IMG/VR virus record: IMGVR_UViG_3300028920_000002 | Coordinates: 122,724 to 186,723 of that record | DNA from: a virus | DNA: 64,000 nucleotides | Reading direction: 5' to 3' (one strand) | Part shown: piece after piece, positions 3,672 to 51,610 of the stretch | Numbering within the stretch: the stretch's first letter is position 1 | Layout: each line of letters opens with the position of its first letter | Translations under genes and position numbers: made by a program | Notes under the pieces: generated by a model | What the model saw: only the letters and a program-made list of their open reading frames with translations | What the model was told of the DNA's origin: nothing | Database searches by the model: none

Positions 3672-4505
3672 GTGAACTACTCCAGCATGCGGGACGAGTT
3701 TTACAAGATTGCCAAGGAGAAGAAGCCGCCGGTGCCCGGTGAGCGAGATGTACTGCTGGGTACCGGTGGATGGCTTGGCTCTAAGGCCATGAAGGCGGTT
3801 GGCAGAAAGGGCAACGCCGCTCTCGTTGAAGAGCTCATGAACGAGACTCCCACCCCGTCAGACGTTCGCACCAGGCAAATCAACCTCTTCAAAAAGATGG
3901 TCGGTGGTTCCGGTGTGGACGTCTACGGCAAGCAGCTTACTGGTCACGGCCCAGCTGCCATCCAAGCTCTGAAGACTAAGCCGGCCATGCACATCGCCCC
4001 AGAGATGATTGGCATGCCGGGCATCATCGCTCATGAGCTCGGCCATGTTGACGTAGCCAAGGGTCGCATCGGCAAATTCGTCGGGGGCCTTCCCGGTGTG
4101 CTTGGTGGGATGGCTGCAAGAAAGGTGTCTCCCTACACAGCACTAGCTGGCGGACTACTCACTGGAGCCAGCAAGGAAGAGGATGAAGGGAAGCGGCGTA
4201 CCGGCACGGCGATGGCTGCGGCCCCTACTGTGTTGGGCCAAGGTCAACAGTTGGCCGATGAGGCCGGGGCAAGCTTGTACGGTCTGCGTCGTCTACGCCA
4301 AGCAGGGGCTACTCCGGCGGAGATGTCGGCAGCCCGCAAGCACATGACCAAGGCGTTCGGCACCTATGGCACCGCTGCGCTGGTACCTGCGGGTACTGCT
4401 CTTGGGCTGTACGGGATAGGTCGTGGCGCGGCAGGTATGGTGCGCAGGCGAGCACATCTGAATTCCAGAGCTAGAGAAGAAGCGCCCCCGGACGCTTCTT
4501 CCTAG
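3672..4505 (+). CDS. HEXXH zinc-metallopeptidase-like protein with Gly/Ala-rich hydrophobic segments
   Basis: IIAHELGH (aa 118-125) plus a distal DEAGAS glutamate (gluzincin pattern); N-terminal RDEFYKIA motif. Confidence 0.65.
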   Translation: MNYSSMRDEFYKIAKEKKPPVPGERDVLLGTGGWLGSKAMKAVGRKGNAALVEELMNETPTPSDVRTRQINLFKKMVGGSGVDVYGKQLTGHGPAAIQALKTKPAMHIAPEMIGMPGIIAHELGHVDVAKGRIGKFVGGLPGVLGGMAARKVSPYTALAGGLLTGASKEEDEGKRRTGTAMAAAPTVLGQGQQLADEAGASLYGLRRLRQAGATPAEMSAARKHMTKAFGTYGTAALVPAGTALGLYGIGRGAAGMVRRRAHLNSRAREEAPPDASS

Positions 4506-4508
4506 CCC

Positions 4509-4925
4509 TCAGTTGTTCGGGCTGTGTGCCTTGGCGGCGTCCCCGACAACCTTCTCCTCTACTGGGCGAATGATGCGCTGAAGTAGGCCGCCCACCATTC
4601 GGCGAGCCTCCTCATCACGAACTGCCTCGTACGCCTCTACTGCCTCCTTGGTGAAGTTCGGGCAGCCGACCGTGAACAGGGTGCGGGCAGCCTCGAGCAG
4701 TAGGGCCTCTGCCACCCTGTGCGCCGCCCAGGACATCGCCGCATCATGCGTCTCCTTGTCGTCGGTCTCGTCGTCCACCATGTCCTCACAGTCCTCGACC
4801 ATCTTCGAGAGCTGATTGCTCAGCGCAGTGCGGATGTGGACCCCGAGCTTGACGACGAACTCCTCGCTCGTCGCTTCGGTGAGTTTGCAGGTGGCGCAGT
4901 CACACTTCTTCTCTTCGTTGGACAT
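4509..4925 (-). CDS. Hypothetical protein
   Basis: 138-aa ORF with AGGAGG SD; N-terminal CDCATC. Confidence 0.7.
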   Translation of the reverse strand: MSNEEKKCDCATCKLTEATSEEFVVKLGVHIRTALSNQLSKMVEDCEDMVDDETDDKETHDAAMSWAAHRVAEALLLEAARTLFTVGCPNFTKEAVEAYEAVRDEEARRMVGGLLQRIIRPVEEKVVGDAAKAHSPNN

Positions 4926-45147: not shown

Positions 45148-45537
45148 ATGGACGACCTGCTCAAGAACCTCAGCATCCCGGGGGTACTTGCCCTCGCTGT
45201 GATGGTGGTCATCGCCGTCTTCTTCACACGGCGCATCGTCGAGCTCATCTGGCCGCACCTCAAGAAGAAGAACCCGTACGTCACCAAGTTCTCGCAGTGG
45301 TACAACCAGGTCGTCCTCTACGCCATTCCACTGGCATACGGTGCCCTCTTCGCCCTCATACCCTCGAAGTTCCTGTTCGGTGATGTCGAGGACTTCTTCG
45401 GCAAGCTCTTCGCTTCCTGCACCGTGGCGTGGTTCAGCGGCTTCCTCTACAAGGTCTTCAAGAAGCTCATCCTCAAGAACTACGACGTGGACGTGAAGTT
45501 GCCCGAGTCACCGGTGGAACTCCCGCCAGAGGTGTGA
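45148..45537 (+). CDS. Holin-like membrane protein
   Basis: Three hydrophobic helices; charged C-terminus; AGGAGG SD. Confidence 0.55.
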   Translation: MDDLLKNLSIPGVLALAVMVVIAVFFTRRIVELIWPHLKKKNPYVTKFSQWYNQVVLYAIPLAYGALFALIPSKFLFGDVEDFFGKLFASCTVAWFSGFLYKVFKKLILKNYDVDVKLPESPVELPPEV

Positions 45538-45538
45538 G

Positions 45539-45931
45539 GTGCCGATTCCAGTCTTCATGATGGGCGTCTGGAGCGGCCTGAAGAAGGTGTGGCTCTGGCT
45601 CAAGAAGTACTGGATGTGGCTGCTCTTCCCTGTCGGCATCGTGGTCTTCTTCCTGGGCCGTTGGACGAAGTCCAAGCCTCCTGATGTCGTGGTCCCAGAA
45701 CTTCTGGGTGCTGCCGACAAGAAGCTCGAGGAAGACGCCAAGGCCAGAGAAGCTGCTGAGCGGGCCAAGGCAGAGCGTGACCGTATGCGCGACGAAGTGC
45801 TGAGAGAGCACTACCGCACCATCGAGAGGCTCAGCGAGAAGCAGCAGGACAAGGTGGACGAGCTCGTGGACGACCCCGAAGCCCTGAACGAGTTCCTGCT
45901 GAGCGTTGGGCGGGAGATGCGAGATGAATGA
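45539..45931 (+). CDS. i-spanin-like protein
   Basis: Single N-terminal TM followed by a charged coiled coil; follows the holin-like gene. Confidence 0.5.
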   Translation: MPIPVFMMGVWSGLKKVWLWLKKYWMWLLFPVGIVVFFLGRWTKSKPPDVVVPELLGAADKKLEEDAKAREAAERAKAERDRMRDEVLREHYRTIERLSEKQQDKVDELVDDPEALNEFLLSVGREMRDE

Positions 45932-46469
45932 GCAAAAGTACCTCGAGTTGGTGTCCGAGGTGGAAGCGGAGTTCCCCGACTTCTCCATCAAGAACAAGGA
46001 GGAGAGCCGGCTGATGAAGGTGTGCGACTTCTGCTTGAAGCTCATCACCTTCTGGCAGATGAAGACCTTCATGACGGAGTTCTTCACGACCATCGGCTAC
46101 ACCATCTACGTTCCCTCGAAGCGTTGGACGGAGATGGACCCACCCAGCAAGGCCAGCCTACTTCGCCATGAGCGCGTTCACATGCGCCAGCGCAAGAAGT
46201 ACGGGATGGTCCTGTTCGCCTTCCTCTTTCTCTTCTTTCCTGTGCCGACCATTTGGGCCTACTACCGCAAGAAGTTCGAGCAGGAAGCCTACGAGGAGAG
46301 CATCCGTGCCTGGTATGAGTACTACGGACTCTCTTACGTGCAGCACAGCAAGACTCGCCGCTACACCATCAACCACTTCACCAGCGCCGAGTACTTCTGG
46401 ATGTGGCCCTGGCGGGGCGGCCTCGAGAGTTGGTATGACGACCTCGTGGCCCACCTGTCGAGTGGTTGA
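45924..46469 (+). CDS. HEXXH zinc-metallopeptidase-like protein
   Basis: LLRHERVHMRQ..FEQEAY; internal hydrophobic helix. Confidence 0.7.
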   Translation: MNEQKYLELVSEVEAEFPDFSIKNKEESRLMKVCDFCLKLITFWQMKTFMTEFFTTIGYTIYVPSKRWTEMDPPSKASLLRHERVHMRQRKKYGMVLFAFLFLFFPVPTIWAYYRKKFEQEAYEESIRAWYEYYGLSYVQHSKTRRYTINHFTSAEYFWMWPWRGGLESWYDDLVAHLSSG

Positions 46470-46492
46470 ACGTCCCGTTACAGACCTCTTTC

Positions 46493-46501
46493 TGGTAGCC
46501 T
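46493..46501 (+). promoter_or_regulatory. Extended -10, leaderless geometry
   Basis: TGGTAGCCT-gatgca-GTG (46508). Confidence 0.5.
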
Positions 46502-46507
46502 GATGCA

Positions 46508-49500
46508 GTGCCGGACCGCGAATTCGCCCCAGGAATACCGGCAAGTCGCGCGGTGCGCGCTCTGCCGAAGTTCAAGAAGCCTCAAACCTGGGAGATGGGG
46601 CTTCACCGCCATCAGGCTGAGCGCGCCGGCGAACACTTCGACCTGAGGTTAGGAGACCCATCCACCGGACGCGCTCATTCCTGGGCGCTGCGCAAGGGTC
46701 TGCCAGGCCCTGGGGAGCGGCGCCTGGCGGTGCAGCAGCCTACTCATACCCTGGCCTACATGGATTTCAAGGGCCCCATCAGTGAGGGCTATGGCAAGGG
46801 CAACGTAGAGCTCGCACAGCGGGACAAGACCGAGGTACTTCGCTCCGGTGACAACGAGGTCCGGTTCAACGTCTACCGAGGCAAGGAGAACCAGGAGTTC
46901 GCCCTCAGGCGCATGAAGAGCGCTGGTAACTGGTTCATTCAGAACGTCACCCCCAGTCGTAATACAGGTCCAGCCCAGAAGCTGCCTTCGAGCAAGCCGA
47001 AGTACAAACTCGTGGCGCCTGAGAAGCTGGACCCGGACGACCCGAATACGGAGATGCAGGCCAAGCTGGATGGGGCGCACGTGCTCTACCAGTTCAAGGA
47101 GCCGGGCAGTACGCCCAGGGTCTTCAGCTACCGACCTACCGAACGGGCTACCGGAATCATCGACCACACCCAGAAGCTCGAGGGTTTTGGCAAGCTCAGG
47201 ACGCCCAAGGCGCTCGCCAACACCACTCTGCGCGGCGAGCTCTACGCCGTGGATGAGCAAGGCAAGGCTCTACCGGCCGCTCGGGTCGGAGGGATTCTGA
47301 ACGCGGGAGTTTGGAAGAGTCGTGAGAAACAGAAGCAAGAAGGCCGGCTTGTCCCAGCCGTCTTCGACGTTGTCCAGCATCAAGGCAAGAACGTCGAGGA
47401 GCAGCCCTACGCCGAGAAGAAGAGAATACTCTCAGCGGCAACTCGAGCAGCTCCTTGGCTACAACGGCCTCGGACTGCGACCACGCCCGACGAGAAGCGA
47501 AGACTGATTGCCGACATCCAGGAGGGGCGGGAACCCTCTACAGATGAAGGCGTCGTCGTTTGGCACAAGGACAAGCCTGTACCCGCCAAGAGCAAATTCC
47601 AGGAAGAGAGGGATGTGTACGTCCGCCGCATCTTCGCCGAGGCCGGTGAGAAGCGGCGGGGCACGATGGCCGGTGGCTTCGAGTACAGCACGACGCCGAA
47701 GGGCCCCATCGTCGGGCGCATTGGGACTGGTTTGTCTCATGCCATGAAGAAGGACATGCTCGAGAATCCCTCGAAGTATGAGGGGCTGCACGCCCGCGCG
47801 AAAGCGCTCAAGACGCCGAAGGGTTACGCTCCGCGCAACCCAGTGTTCAAGAGCTTCCACCTCGACCAGGACATCCCGGAGGACGCGAAGACTGCCATGA
47901 AGAAGACAGCAGGCGCCGCCACTGAGTTCGTAGCTGGAGTAGACCCGTTCGGTGTCCTCTCTGGGAGGCTCGGTCAGGAGGCAGAGCGGGAGCAGGCGAG
48001 TGCGGCGCGCCATTACCGAGCCAGGGCGCTCGGGGCCGCCGGCGGTATGGTCGGCAGTGGGCTCATGGTGCCCTCTGTGGTGAGCGGCATCGTCCAGGGC
48101 GCGCAGGCTGCGGGCGGCGGTGGGGGCGGCGTACGGCAGCGTCTGGCACGCGGAGCGGCGGGTTTTGCCCAGGGCTTTCAACGACCCGTTCGAGGACTGG
48201 CCGACGCGGCCAGGACCACCAAGTTCCTCGGCCGAGCGGCCAGGACGCCCGGCGGTTCGACGGCTACAGCCGGTGAGCTCGCCGCTATCCAGAGGACTCT
48301 GAAGGAGACGCCGCTGGGGGCTCTGGCGCCCCACGTGGCCGGTGCCAAGGCTACTCCAGAGGCCACTGGCGAGGCGGGCCAGAGGATGCTTCAGGCCCTA
48401 CAGCGCTACAAGGCGACCGGCAAGCTCCATTTGAGCCCGGAGGAGGCGGCGAAATTCCATGGCCAGGCTAAGGGCGAGACCGCCAAGTTCATGGCCGGCT
48501 TGGGCCTCGGTGGCGCGGTAGGGGCTGGAGGGGCAGTCGCGCAGTACGAGAAGGGCAGGTCAGCGGAGAAGGGTATGCAGCAGCGACTCGAGGAAAAGAA
48601 GGCTGCGGTTCGAGGCTACTACAAGGGCCAGCCGGCGAGTCCTAGCACGGTCAAGTTCAAGACTGAGTATCAAGGCATCCCTATACATGTGGACCGACCA
48701 CGCGGCTTCATCATGATGGGTGAGGACGACAAGGGGAACTCTTGGAAGCGTCGCTACAAATACGACTACGGCTTCATCCCCAAGACCCTGGGCGGGGACG
48801 GTGATGGCCTCGACGTATTCATCGGCCCTCAGAAGAAGGCTGAACATGCCTACTGGGCGGTGCAGAAGAAGTCGGATGGCAGCTTCGATGAGTACAAGGT
48901 CTTCTTGGGCTTCGACAGCCGGGATGAGGCGGCAGCGGTCTACCGTAAGCACATCCCGAAGAAGCTCCTCGCTGGTCTGCTCACCATGCGGGTGGAGATG
49001 ATGAAGGCTATGCTTGGTGGCCAGGAGCCTGCAGAACGGATGCAGAAGGCGGCGATGGCGTTCGGTTTCGTCGATGAGCTGCAGAAGCTGGCCAAGATTA
49101 AGACCGAGCTCGAACCCCATCAGAGACGCGTGGTGGAGAGGATGAAGAAACAGCCGGGCTTGGTGGTAGCCCATGGGCTTGGCTCGGGAAAAACACTTAG
49201 CTCCATCGCGGCGCAGGACGCGTTGGGGCTACCATCCACTGTCATCGTTCCTGCATCTCTGAAGGCCAACTACGAGAAGGAGAGGGAGAAGCACATCGTC
49301 GGCACTTCTCCTGAAGCTGCGCTATCCACTCTGCAGCGTATCGCCCGTGCTGGTGAGGCACCGGCATCGCCGATGATGATTATCGACGAGGCCCACCGGG
49401 CGCGCGAAATTGGCACTAAGACCTACAAGGCTCTGAAAAATAACATCGCTGAGAAACGAATGCTGCTGACGGCTAGCCCCTTCTACAACCGCCCGAGTGA

Positions 49501-50497
49501 CATCGCCCCGTTGGTCAACATCGCCGCGGGCGACCAGGTCCTCCCAGGCGACCCCCAAGCGTTCAAGCAGAAGTACATTCGGGAGCGCACAATCAAGCCT
49601 GGGCTCATCAACAGGATTCGTGGCGTCAAGCCTGGGGTGGTGGCGGAGCTGAACCCTTGGCAGAAGAAGGACCTCAGCAAAGTGCTGCGAGAGTGGGTCG
49701 ATTACCACCCGAACAACCAAGAGGGTTACCCGCAGGTGCAGCGGGAGACCGTCGAAGTCCCGATGACGTCGAAGCAGCTCAAGCTGTACGACGGCCTCAT
49801 CGGTCAGGCGCCTCCGTGGGTAGCCATGAAAGTCAAGGCCGGGCTGCCACCATCGAAGCAGGAGTCTAAGGACCTCAATGCGTTCATGAGCGCCGTACGG
49901 CAGGTTTCTCTCTCGACTAGAGCTCACGCCCCAAAGGAGCCACCGCAGGAGCCCAAGATTGATATGGCCTTCACGCGTATGCATCAGGGGCTCGAGGGCA
50001 ACCCCAGGTTCAAGGGCCTGGTCTACTCGAACTACCTCGAATCGGGCATCAAGCCCTACCGTGAGCGACTCGAGCGTGCTGGCATCCCATACGGCGAGTT
50101 CACTGGTGACATGAAGAAGAAAGAGCGCGACCAGATGGTGCGCGACTACAACGAGGGCAGGAAGAAGGTGCTGTTGGTGAGCTCGGCCGGTGGCGAAGGT
50201 CTGGACTTGCAGGGCACGCGCCTGATTCAGATGATGGAGCCGCACTGGAACGCCGAGAAGCTCCGGCAGGTGGAAGGTCGTGGCATCCGCTTCAAGAGCC
50301 ATGAGCATCTGCCCAAGAACGAGCAGAGCGTGAAGGTCGAGAGCTACTTGGCCACGCGCCCGAGGGCAGGCATACTCGAGAAGATTCGGCTCAAGAAGCC
50401 TGGTGGCGGTGCTGATGAATACCTGACCACGTTATCGGGGCAGAAGGAACAGCTCATCGAGCAGTTCCGCGGTCTCATGAAGGAGGATGCAGCATGA
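46508..50497 (+). CDS. Polyvalent protein: LigD 3'-phosphoesterase + ATP-dependent DNA ligase (NTase+OB) + Gly-zipper region + inorganic-pyrophosphatase-like domain + SNF2 ATPase
   Basis: PE: HQAERAGEHFDLRL..SWALRKG..RLAVQQPTH..Y. Ligase: KLDG (K186), RGELY, VFDVV, EGVV, KSK, IGTG. PPase-like: DYGFIPKTLGGDGDGLDVFIG..DEYKVFLGF. SNF2: HGLGSGKT, IIDEAH, LLTASP, SAGGEGLDL, QVEGRGIR. Confidence 0.85.
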   Translation: MPDREFAPGIPASRAVRALPKFKKPQTWEMGLHRHQAERAGEHFDLRLGDPSTGRAHSWALRKGLPGPGERRLAVQQPTHTLAYMDFKGPISEGYGKGNVELAQRDKTEVLRSGDNEVRFNVYRGKENQEFALRRMKSAGNWFIQNVTPSRNTGPAQKLPSSKPKYKLVAPEKLDPDDPNTEMQAKLDGAHVLYQFKEPGSTPRVFSYRPTERATGIIDHTQKLEGFGKLRTPKALANTTLRGELYAVDEQGKALPAARVGGILNAGVWKSREKQKQEGRLVPAVFDVVQHQGKNVEEQPYAEKKRILSAATRAAPWLQRPRTATTPDEKRRLIADIQEGREPSTDEGVVVWHKDKPVPAKSKFQEERDVYVRRIFAEAGEKRRGTMAGGFEYSTTPKGPIVGRIGTGLSHAMKKDMLENPSKYEGLHARAKALKTPKGYAPRNPVFKSFHLDQDIPEDAKTAMKKTAGAATEFVAGVDPFGVLSGRLGQEAEREQASAARHYRARALGAAGGMVGSGLMVPSVVSGIVQGAQAAGGGGGGVRQRLARGAAGFAQGFQRPVRGLADAARTTKFLGRAARTPGGSTATAGELAAIQRTLKETPLGALAPHVAGAKATPEATGEAGQRMLQALQRYKATGKLHLSPEEAAKFHGQAKGETAKFMAGLGLGGAVGAGGAVAQYEKGRSAEKGMQQRLEEKKAAVRGYYKGQPASPSTVKFKTEYQGIPIHVDRPRGFIMMGEDDKGNSWKRRYKYDYGFIPKTLGGDGDGLDVFIGPQKKAEHAYWAVQKKSDGSFDEYKVFLGFDSRDEAAAVYRKHIPKKLLAGLLTMRVEMMKAMLGGQEPAERMQKAAMAFGFVDELQKLAKIKTELEPHQRRVVERMKKQPGLVVAHGLGSGKTLSSIAAQDALGLPSTVIVPASLKANYEKEREKHIVGTSPEAALSTLQRIARAGEAPASPMMIIDEAHRAREIGTKTYKALKNNIAEKRMLLTASPFYNRPSDIAPLVNIAAGDQVLPGDPQAFKQKYIRERTIKPGLINRIRGVKPGVVAELNPWQKKDLSKVLREWVDYHPNNQEGYPQVQRETVEVPMTSKQLKLYDGLIGQAPPWVAMKVKAGLPPSKQESKDLNAFMSAVRQVSLSTRAHAPKEPPQEPKIDMAFTRMHQGLEGNPRFKGLVYSNYLESGIKPYRERLERAGIPYGEFTGDMKKKERDQMVRDYNEGRKKVLLVSSAGGEGLDLQGTRLIQMMEPHWNAEKLRQVEGRGIRFKSHEHLPKNEQSVKVESYLATRPRAGILEKIRLKKPGGGADEYLTTLSGQKEQLIEQFRGLMKEDAA

Positions 50498-50964
50498 ACT
50501 GGCGCGTTTTTCTACTGGTCTTCCTCTTGCCCTCCATCGTCTGCGCCCAAGCTCTTCCGCCCATTCCGCCAGGCGAAGACCGCATCGTCCCGCTGCCCAA
50601 GGGTGAGAAGGCCCCCTACAGTGGTCAGCTCTTCGACCAGGATACGGCTCTGCGCTGGGCCAATTGGCTGCAGCAGTACAAGTTGAGGCTCAAAGAAGAG
50701 CAGAAGATGTGCTCGAAGTTGAGCTCTATCGAGCTGCGCTACCAGAGCAAGTTGCTCAACATCGAGAAGCGGCGTGCCAACGCTATAGAGAGCGACCTGC
50801 GTGCTAGGCTGAAGCGCTCGGAAGAGGCGAGGCTACAGGCCGAACACGAGGCCAGGAACCCGCCTTGGTACACGACGAGGACGTTCGGTATCATAGTGGG
50901 TGTGGTTGGCACCGCGGCCATCTTCAGCGCCTCCATCTGGGCCTTCAGCGCGACGAGTAACTAG
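50494..50964 (+). CDS. Exported coiled-coil protein with C-terminal TM (spanin-like partner)
   Basis: N-terminal signal, KAPYSG motif, coiled coil, PPWY + TM; no canonical lipobox. Confidence 0.5.
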   Translation: MNWRVFLLVFLLPSIVCAQALPPIPPGEDRIVPLPKGEKAPYSGQLFDQDTALRWANWLQQYKLRLKEEQKMCSKLSSIELRYQSKLLNIEKRRANAIESDLRARLKRSEEARLQAEHEARNPPWYTTRTFGIIVGVVGTAAIFSASIWAFSATSN

Positions 50965-51191
50965 TGGCTGAAATCACCATCGGCAGGGTCCTCGACAAGG
51001 ACACCGACAGCGTCTCGAGCTTCGAGAAGCACATCCTGGTGCCTGAAGAGTATGACCACATGGACCTGAGCTACACGGCCGGCAAGGTCAGCCAGGTGGT
51101 CTACAGGCAGGGTGGAGCAGGCGGTACCATCGTGGCTACCCTCACGCTGGGCTATACCTCTGGCCGCCTCAGCTCCGTGACGAGGACCTGA
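50964..51191 (+). CDS. Small virion-associated protein
   Basis: 75 aa; coupled; beta-hairpin-like sequence. Confidence 0.6.
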   Translation: MAEITIGRVLDKDTDSVSSFEKHILVPEEYDHMDLSYTAGKVSQVVYRQGGAGGTIVATLTLGYTSGRLSSVTRT

Positions 51192-51610
51192 TGGGCGAGC
51201 CGGCACTGGAGTTCAACCCATTCACCGGTACGCTGGATTGGGTTGCGCAGCCCGATGACGTGTCGGCGCCTGGGGAGTTCACCGTGCCCTCCGGCGCCAA
51301 CGTCGGTGACCTGGTCTACCCGTCGGGAGACCTGGCCATGGCGCAGGCCGACTACTCCAGTGCAGCCACGCGTGCCGTAGCGTTGATTGTAGACAAGCCC
51401 ACGAGTGCGACCGCCACTCTGCTCTTCGGTGGGAAGGTCAGTGGGTTCGCTGGGCTTACGGCGGGAGACGAACTATTCTTGGGTAGCACAGGAGCCTTCG
51501 TGAACAAGACCGGGCTGCCCTCGACCGATGGCTACATCATTCAGAGCATCGGCTCGGCCGTGGACCCCACGACCATCATCTTCAACCCCCAGATTCCGAT
51601 TGTACTCTGA
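51191..51610 (+). CDS. Head decoration/fibre-like protein
   Basis: C-terminal GLTAGDELFL..IQSIGSAVDPTTIIFNP resembles the C-terminus of 51943-53874. Confidence 0.55.
   Translation: MGEPALEFNPFTGTLDWVAQPDDVSAPGEFTVPSGANVGDLVYPSGDLAMAQADYSSAATRAVALIVDKPTSATATLLFGGKVSGFAGLTAGDELFLGSTGAFVNKTGLPSTDGYIIQSIGSAVDPTTIIFNPQIPIVL

Follow-up and report, generated by a model that had tools for sequence, protein, structure and literature searches.

The window studied here, a stretch of 64,000 nucleotides (positions 122,724 to 186,723 of IMG/VR virus record IMGVR_UViG_3300028920_000002), covers the final third of a phage genome of marine sediment origin (G000), complete at 186.7 kb, and carries a long open reading frame (ORF), P0001, that chains a LigD-type 3'-phosphoesterase (PE) and an ATP-dependent ligase to a Gly/Ala-rich segment, a pyrophosphatase-like InPase module and a SNF2-type ATPase. 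We read P0001, with a probability of about 0.65, as a capsid-cargo precursor from which the prohead protease would release four proteins. Because the joints between its modules carry the same Lys-x-Ala (K-x-A) motif as the capsid proteins, we infer that the chain probably enters the head and is cut up instead of working as a single repair machine. G000 is an RNA polymerase (RNAP)-encoding myovirus related to the cultured Salmonella phage Arash; it encodes a terminase, a major capsid protein, a tail sheath and a fused beta-beta' RNAP (2151 amino acids (aa), G000:C1:23816-30271), and among GenBank phage records its capsid protein matched only Arash and three Vibrio phages. The parts of P0001, in window coordinates, are:

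46508-50497, + strand: polyprotein ORF P0001, 1329 aa, GTG start, a single open frame (G000:C1:169231-173220).
46508-47896, + strand: module 1, PE-ligase, aa 1-463, ~52 kDa, with PE at aa ~20-148 and a minimal ATP-dependent ligase (nucleotidyltransferase (NTase) plus OB) at aa ~160-456.
47888-47911, + strand: junction 1, two K-x-A motifs (K461-T-A and K466-T-A), predicted protease sites.
47912-48607, + strand: module 2, basic Gly/Ala-rich protein, aa 469-700, ~23 kDa, with no assigned function.
48596-48607, + strand: junction 2, K697/K698-x-A, profile score 6.3, matching the position of the second KTA in the homolog P0122.
48608-49054, + strand: module 3, InPase-family pyrophosphatase-like, aa 701-849, ~17 kDa.
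49046-49093, + strand: junction 3, K847-A-A, an acidic amphipathic tag at aa 850-859 (F-x-D-E-L type) and K860-L-A.
49094-50494, + strand: module 4, compact SNF2-type ATPase, aa 863-1329, ~52 kDa, with GKT at 894-896, DEAH at 960-963 and motif VI at 1254-1261.

Searches of Pfam, NCBIfam, PHROG and PDB agreed on PE, ligase, InPase and SNF2 in the order proposed by a preliminary description of the window, whose 1329-aa ORF and domain identities held, with catalytic residues intact. Pfam placed LigD_N at aa 33-144 (6.5e-13), ATP ligase at 183-315 (weak, 1.2e-4), InPase at 716-835 (1.4e-26; PF18823, above cut-off), SNF2 at 940-1100 and Helicase_C at 1164-1262. Residues Y754, D764, D769, D794, E795 and K797 of the InPase module and the motifs of the SNF2 module are invariant among homologs. 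The description had counted five domains, but PE and ligase form a single unit, so that there are four modules. The Gly/Ala segment that it noticed stood as well, whereas the two hydrophobic helices described there are moderate stretches only (Kyte-Doolittle peaks 1.5 and 1.2), so membrane helices are unsupported in this segment. It had missed the K-x-A junctions.

K-x-A is present at all three P0001 junctions and recurs at module edges in relatives. Within 25 aa of an edge, in 101 non-redundant homologs and with related sequences counted, the motif was found at the N- and C-terminal edges of SNF2 (59/78 and 38/57) and of InPase (25/29 and 18/22), at the C-terminal edge of the ligase (27/31) and at the N-terminal edge of PE (10/24), a range of 42-87%; inside modules it occurs in 4.9% of windows. 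The joint between PE and ligase was not enriched (4/38 and 5/39), and the control motifs RxA, KA and AxK were flat. The SNF2 core starts exactly 7 aa past the motif in 65 of the 86 scored edges.

Head proteins bear the same signal. K-[ILMV]-[AS] stands at about residue 26-28 of the major capsid protein in 80/80 homologs, its middle residue being variable, and K-x-[A/S/G] is common to the capsid protein, scaffold-like head proteins, a candidate prohead protease and the cargo chain; the Arash capsid protein, with K27-E-A, its scaffold-like proteins and its protease homolog carry it too. When a profile built on the junctions of other phages' proteins was compared with shuffles, the head block of G000 scored 26 versus 3.5 shuffled (7.4-fold), and the tail genes 3 versus 3.3.

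Next to the motif, and always on its outer side, lies a short, often acidic amphipathic peptide, which we call the tag. Sixty stand-alone PE-ligases carry it as an N-terminal leader only (24), as a C-terminal tail only (23), at both ends (3) or not at all (10), and the 3 with both compare with 11.7 expected if the ends were independent; on the tree, the side switches at least 10 times. A tag found at either end, rarely at both, and changing sides behaves like a removable targeting tag needed once. In P0001 it is internal, between K847 and K860, and aa 850-859 are thus a candidate capsid-targeting peptide. The Gly/Ala segment is counted as the fourth module because another phage encodes it by itself, as a 221-aa gene with a tag leader (L116:9061-9726); comparison of this module with Atlas gave no usable match.

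A candidate for the cutting enzyme is encoded elsewhere in the genome:

G000 C1:42261-43961: candidate prohead protease, immediately upstream of the genes for scaffold-like proteins and capsid.

Its residues H117, H118 and S174 and its K30-x-A32 are invariant, and the motif stands at both ends of the N-terminal domain, an arrangement that suggests self-processing. The best VIA fold match was T4 gp21 (Z 4.8, 140 aligned; weak), and the nearest named Atlas clusters, also weak, were the prohead protease families S77, S80 and S78; Foldseek against PDB reached gp21 only at E 0.6, and the alignment profile gave chance matches only against PDB sequences. These lines are weak but agree, and we regard the product as a candidate T4-gp21-like prohead protease. 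An unannotated homolog is Arash gp222 (OQ632216; L175:31738-33213), and others occur in Vibrio phages D69, D148 and D181.

The virion proteome of Arash bears on the SNF2 module, which is a full-length ortholog (38%, E 4e-101) of the stand-alone SNF2 protein gp217. In virion preparations gp217 was among the most detected proteins, with 1148 spectra, and the Arash RNAP was likewise highly detected; the authors caution about contamination (PMC10585845). The abundance of gp217 makes probable the virion packaging that the preliminary description had suggested. Since gp217 is encoded beside RNAP beta' and was found together with this neighbor, the SNF2 module leans to early transcription rather than repair. 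No PE-ligase was detected in Arash. Another full-length homolog of the SNF2 module (36%) is encoded by Pseudanabaena phage PA-SR01 (MT234670 25105-26451).

Several observations weigh against cleavage and packaging as proposed here. Plain per-gene counts of K-x-A fail to tell head genes from non-virion ones, which is why the junction-trained profile was used instead, and with that profile the non-virion genes still scored 8 versus 3.6, the G000 RNAP was not enriched and junction 2 fell below threshold. Ten of the 60 stand-alone PE-ligases lack a tag, and Arash gp217 was in the virion preparation although it is without a K-x-A leader. The protease call depends on weak fold matches (predicted local distance difference test score (pLDDT) 57, Z <5), Pfam and HMM searches of G000 found no S77 or S78 prohead protease, and the prohead proteases used for comparison cut after Glu. 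In the Arash proteome, the K-x-A-rich proteins gp220, gp221, gp223 and gp225.1 had 95-100% coverage (PMC10585845); full coverage is inconsistent with complete degradation, but the column looks unreliable (100% from 2 peptides). No precedent for K-x-A processing was found in the literature, of which our coverage was incomplete.

As a capsid-cargo precursor, P0001 would be made late and pulled into the prohead via the acidic helical tag at aa 850-859, after which the prohead protease would cut at K-x-A, presumably behind the Ala, as the example of other prohead proteases suggests. The products, of ~52, 23, 17 and 52 kDa, would enter the cell with the DNA and then work separately. The PE-ligase may trim 3' ends, probably by ribonucleotide resection, a strong 3'-phosphatase activity being doubtful, and may seal nicks or breaks without Ku; SNF2 would act as a DNA translocase that most likely works for the virion RNAP, and InPase may hydrolyze pyrophosphate or a nucleotide signal. 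The string itself would have formed by gene fusion at linkers, several cargoes sharing one tag.

Among the P0001 modules, the PE-ligase is the only dedicated end-processing unit. The residues that the preliminary description had picked out, H35/H43/D45/R47/H80/Y84 of PE and K186 of the ligase, are invariant in 41 homologs; the PE residues form the His-His-Asp metal triad plus Arg, His and Tyr of a LigD 3'-phosphoesterase (roles taken from PMC8656161), and PE matched PDB 3p4h at E 2e-12. Loss of the equivalent of Glu82, which had been suspected, was borne out, since the position (P78) is Pro in 34 of the 41 homologs and the loss is therefore family-wide. Among the residues for vigorous 3'-phosphomonoesterase activity (Arg14, Asp15, Glu21 and Glu82), the Glu21 equivalent is not clear. 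A predicted model of PE plus ligase (aa 1-460, pLDDT 89) matched ATP-dependent DNA ligases in Foldseek with E down to 1.6e-13, and LigE with a template modelling (TM) score of 0.74. The ligase comprises NTase and OB domains with motifs I, III, IIIa, IV and V, in which K186, D188, R209, E244, D287, E347, K361 and K363 are conserved. ATP ligases normally have R-x-D in motif VI; here a conserved H-x-D is found at 47858-47866 (aa 451-453). As first described, domain searches found no LigD polymerase domain in the ORF, and Ku is absent, beyond the window, from the complete genome and from 38 related records (0/38); a host Ku is possible.

The PE-ligases form a phage-encoded family of more than 400 proteins; an alignment-based search found them in IMG/VR, and none was found among GenBank phage records; nor was a phage LigD-type PE-ligase, in virions or otherwise, found described in our incomplete coverage of the literature. 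One match (L159, G032:C1:70971-72269) carries 13 in-frame TAG codons and probably belongs to a TAG-recoded phage of the same group, and another (L143:3085-7509) shares one open frame with an RNAP beta' C-terminal domain. Intein/LAGLIDADG-type insertions interrupt SNF2 and PE-ligase modules in P0053, P0054, P0084, P0114, P0076 and L160.

The nearest relative, P0122 (85% identity), has a PE-ligase-InPase followed by a short tail, with the same downstream gene sizes. Compared with it, P0001 has the Gly module inserted at the junction 1 linker and SNF2 appended behind the InPase tail, both exactly at K-x-A linkers; the string is a recent accretion. Cargo chains extend to about 3000 aa.

Among ~240 homologs surveyed for domain architecture, PE and ligase are almost always joined. 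On a FastTree tree, ligase-InPase is the common state of the P0001 clade, with PE-ligase plus InPase retained in 25/31 members of this subclade; the pair also arises separately elsewhere, and fusions with SNF2 appear repeatedly, in several clades. In 10 of 56 viral loci selected by PE-ligase alone, SNF2 lies within 6 kb of the PE-ligase or is fused to it, and certain fusion partners are likewise phosphoesterases (2H, histidine phosphatase). All this would suit the preliminary description, which had taken the domains for a coherent pathway, co-selected to heal, seal, drive and translocate at breaks made by restriction or CRISPR cutting. The complete set, however, occurs in one chain in P0001 only (1/~240); elsewhere PE-ligase, InPase and SNF2 are found singly or paired, in either order. 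In the unbiased set of 56 loci, 27 PE-ligases stand alone and the rest are fused, 5 to SNF2, only 2 to InPase and 22 to other modules. Of the 15 nearest genomes, ranked by capsid sequence, all have InPase, 2 have PE-ligase, 2 have this SNF2 and none has the three together; 13 of 20 PE-ligase genomes lack an InPase match, and 2 of the 20 hold all three, as separate genes. Other partners are unrelated (GNAT, C39 and C92 peptidases, SET, GGCT, DUF5661), NUDIX is a further one, and Arash keeps its SNF2 beside RNAP with no PE-ligase detected. The modules thus behave as independent accessory genes with free order and partners, and the coherent pathway falls away; the ligase-InPase pairing, being common in the P0001 clade, is the sole part of it that retains some weight. 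A co-selected break-repair machine seems to us decidedly improbable, and protection against restriction or CRISPR breaks is speculative.

Unlikely too, on present evidence, is a polyvalent protein packaged and ejected whole, in which K-x-A would be a docking or recombination-friendly linker and the modules would be independent while tethered. The N4 virion RNAP is packaged unprocessed (PMC5512222), and the high coverage of the motif-rich Arash proteins would fit; but the motif keeps a fixed register at the capsid start, stands at both ends of the protease domain, is repeated in scaffold-like proteins and has a free middle residue, which is the pattern of prohead-protease sites, and the tag is invariably outside it. 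That P0001 is no virion cargo at all, but a late cytoplasmic fusion whose PE-ligase seals replication or recombination nicks and whose motifs are relics, we consider very improbable. Minimal ATP ligases do replication work in many viruses, and no other ligase gene was noticed in G000, although no systematic search was made; the gene nevertheless lies on the strand of the structural genes, in the late tail operon, PE-ligase is missing from 13 of the 15 nearest genomes, and tags are retained across the family. An assembly chimera, which the preliminary description had named as fatal to its account, is scarcely credible. No single Logan contig covers the entire ORF and junction 1 coincides with a contig break, but identical 31-base breaks also occur within domains, read depth is flat (about 4000-4660) with zero mismatches, junction 3 (InPase/SNF2) lies inside one contig, three independent studies bridge junction 2 (Gly/InPase), module boundaries show no alternative joint, the frame is open throughout and GC content at third codon positions is uniform.

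Elsewhere in the window, a second example of the leader signal was found:

3672-4505, + strand: gene of 277 aa whose leader is again the tag, ending in K-I-A; it has Gly-rich helices and an HExxH zincin-like motif.

It had no Pfam match; the product is probably a cargo metallopeptidase, and possibly an alternative cutter. The gene directly upstream of P0001 (45906-46469, + strand) also has HExxH, with a weak PhageMetallopep match below cut-off (E 1e-3). Small hydrophobic genes flank the locus (45148-45931 and 50494-50964, + strand); they are membrane/lysis-like (holin/spanin-like) and had no Pfam matches. Basic Gly/Ala-rich proteins that bear K-x-A sites or a tag leader are numerous, being encoded at G000:C1 14644-16545, 50299-53956, 54848-55228, 59340-59726, 62150-62770 and 98253-101576; they belong to no known family and are possible ejection or inner-head proteins. 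Word depth across window positions 45800-51200 was ~4000 in one marine sediment run (X1), with traces in marsh and sediment runs. Among the features given for mReC (PMC7481178), G000 has the beta and beta' RNAP subunits, but its capsid protein did not match PF07068, having no Pfam match at E 0.05 and matching phrog_2522 instead. In the literature, incompletely covered, the family of G000 and Arash was not found described beyond Arash.

The precise order of domains occurs once and carries little weight in itself. It points to a K-x-A head-maturation rule and a movable packaging tag in a large, almost uncultured phage group, both testable in the cultured phage Arash, where the candidate protease gp222 is unannotated. 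If true, this would explain how 'polyvalent' proteins come to combine unrelated domains, and whether they are cut; the tag could also be used for loading proteins into capsids. The phage phosphoesterase-ligases, a family of over 400 that have neither Ku nor a polymerase domain, count as candidate injected enzymes of DNA repair. Only tentatively would we go further and propose that Arash-like phages combine a prohead protease of a hitherto undescribed Lys-x-Ala specificity with a position-independent targeting helix for plug-and-play loading, enzymes being chained, shuffled and released in the capsid, among them an injected Ku-independent PE-ligase that repairs the incoming genome.

Among known systems, in T4 the internal proteins and Alt combine a capsid-targeting sequence with gp21 processing, and ejection proteins of SPN3US and phiKZ are cut by gp245 and gp175, the SPN3US cleavage motif being A-X-E (PMC5694885, PMC10052503). 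P0001 resembles such cargo in having a short removable propeptide or tag beside a three-residue motif common to capsid and core proteins, and a gp21-like protease, here a candidate. It differs in that its motif is K-x-[A/S/G], whereas theirs ends in Glu; its tag may be N-terminal, C-terminal or internal, whereas the T4 type is strictly N-terminal; and its predicted cuts would free several folded enzymes, whereas theirs trim a propeptide. With the polyvalent proteins of Iyer et al. 2017, predicted to be virion-packaged and including InPase and SWI2/SNF2 among their domains (PMC5512222), it shares unrelated effector domains, InPase and SNF2, in one chain. MPTase, adenine methylase and LPD domains were not found in P0001, and the methylase-SNF2 dyad is absent too; an MPTase hub or this dyad is common in the polyvalent class but not obligatory, and LigD goes unmentioned there (PMC5512222). 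Unlike polyvalent proteins, P0001 bears a head-protein motif at its junctions, which points to a prohead protease rather than autoproteolysis.

Arash gp217 is a full-length ortholog of the SNF2 module and was in virion preparations (PMC10585845), but it stands alone beside RNAP beta' with no K-x-A leader. P0001 resembles bacterial LigD of non-homologous end joining (NHEJ) and archaeal stand-alone PE (PMC3082917, PMC8656161) in its PE fold, where the six metal- and phosphate-binding residues are all kept, and in the joining of PE to an ATP-dependent ligase. It departs from NHEJ LigD/Ku in lacking both Ku and a polymerase domain, in having Pro for Glu82, in its N-terminal peptide and in its ligase, which is divergent and of a minimal type, with H-x-D as motif VI. 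P0001 is no NHEJ system of the LigD/Ku kind; its construction is that of a polyvalent protein, and it most likely works like T4-type head cargo.

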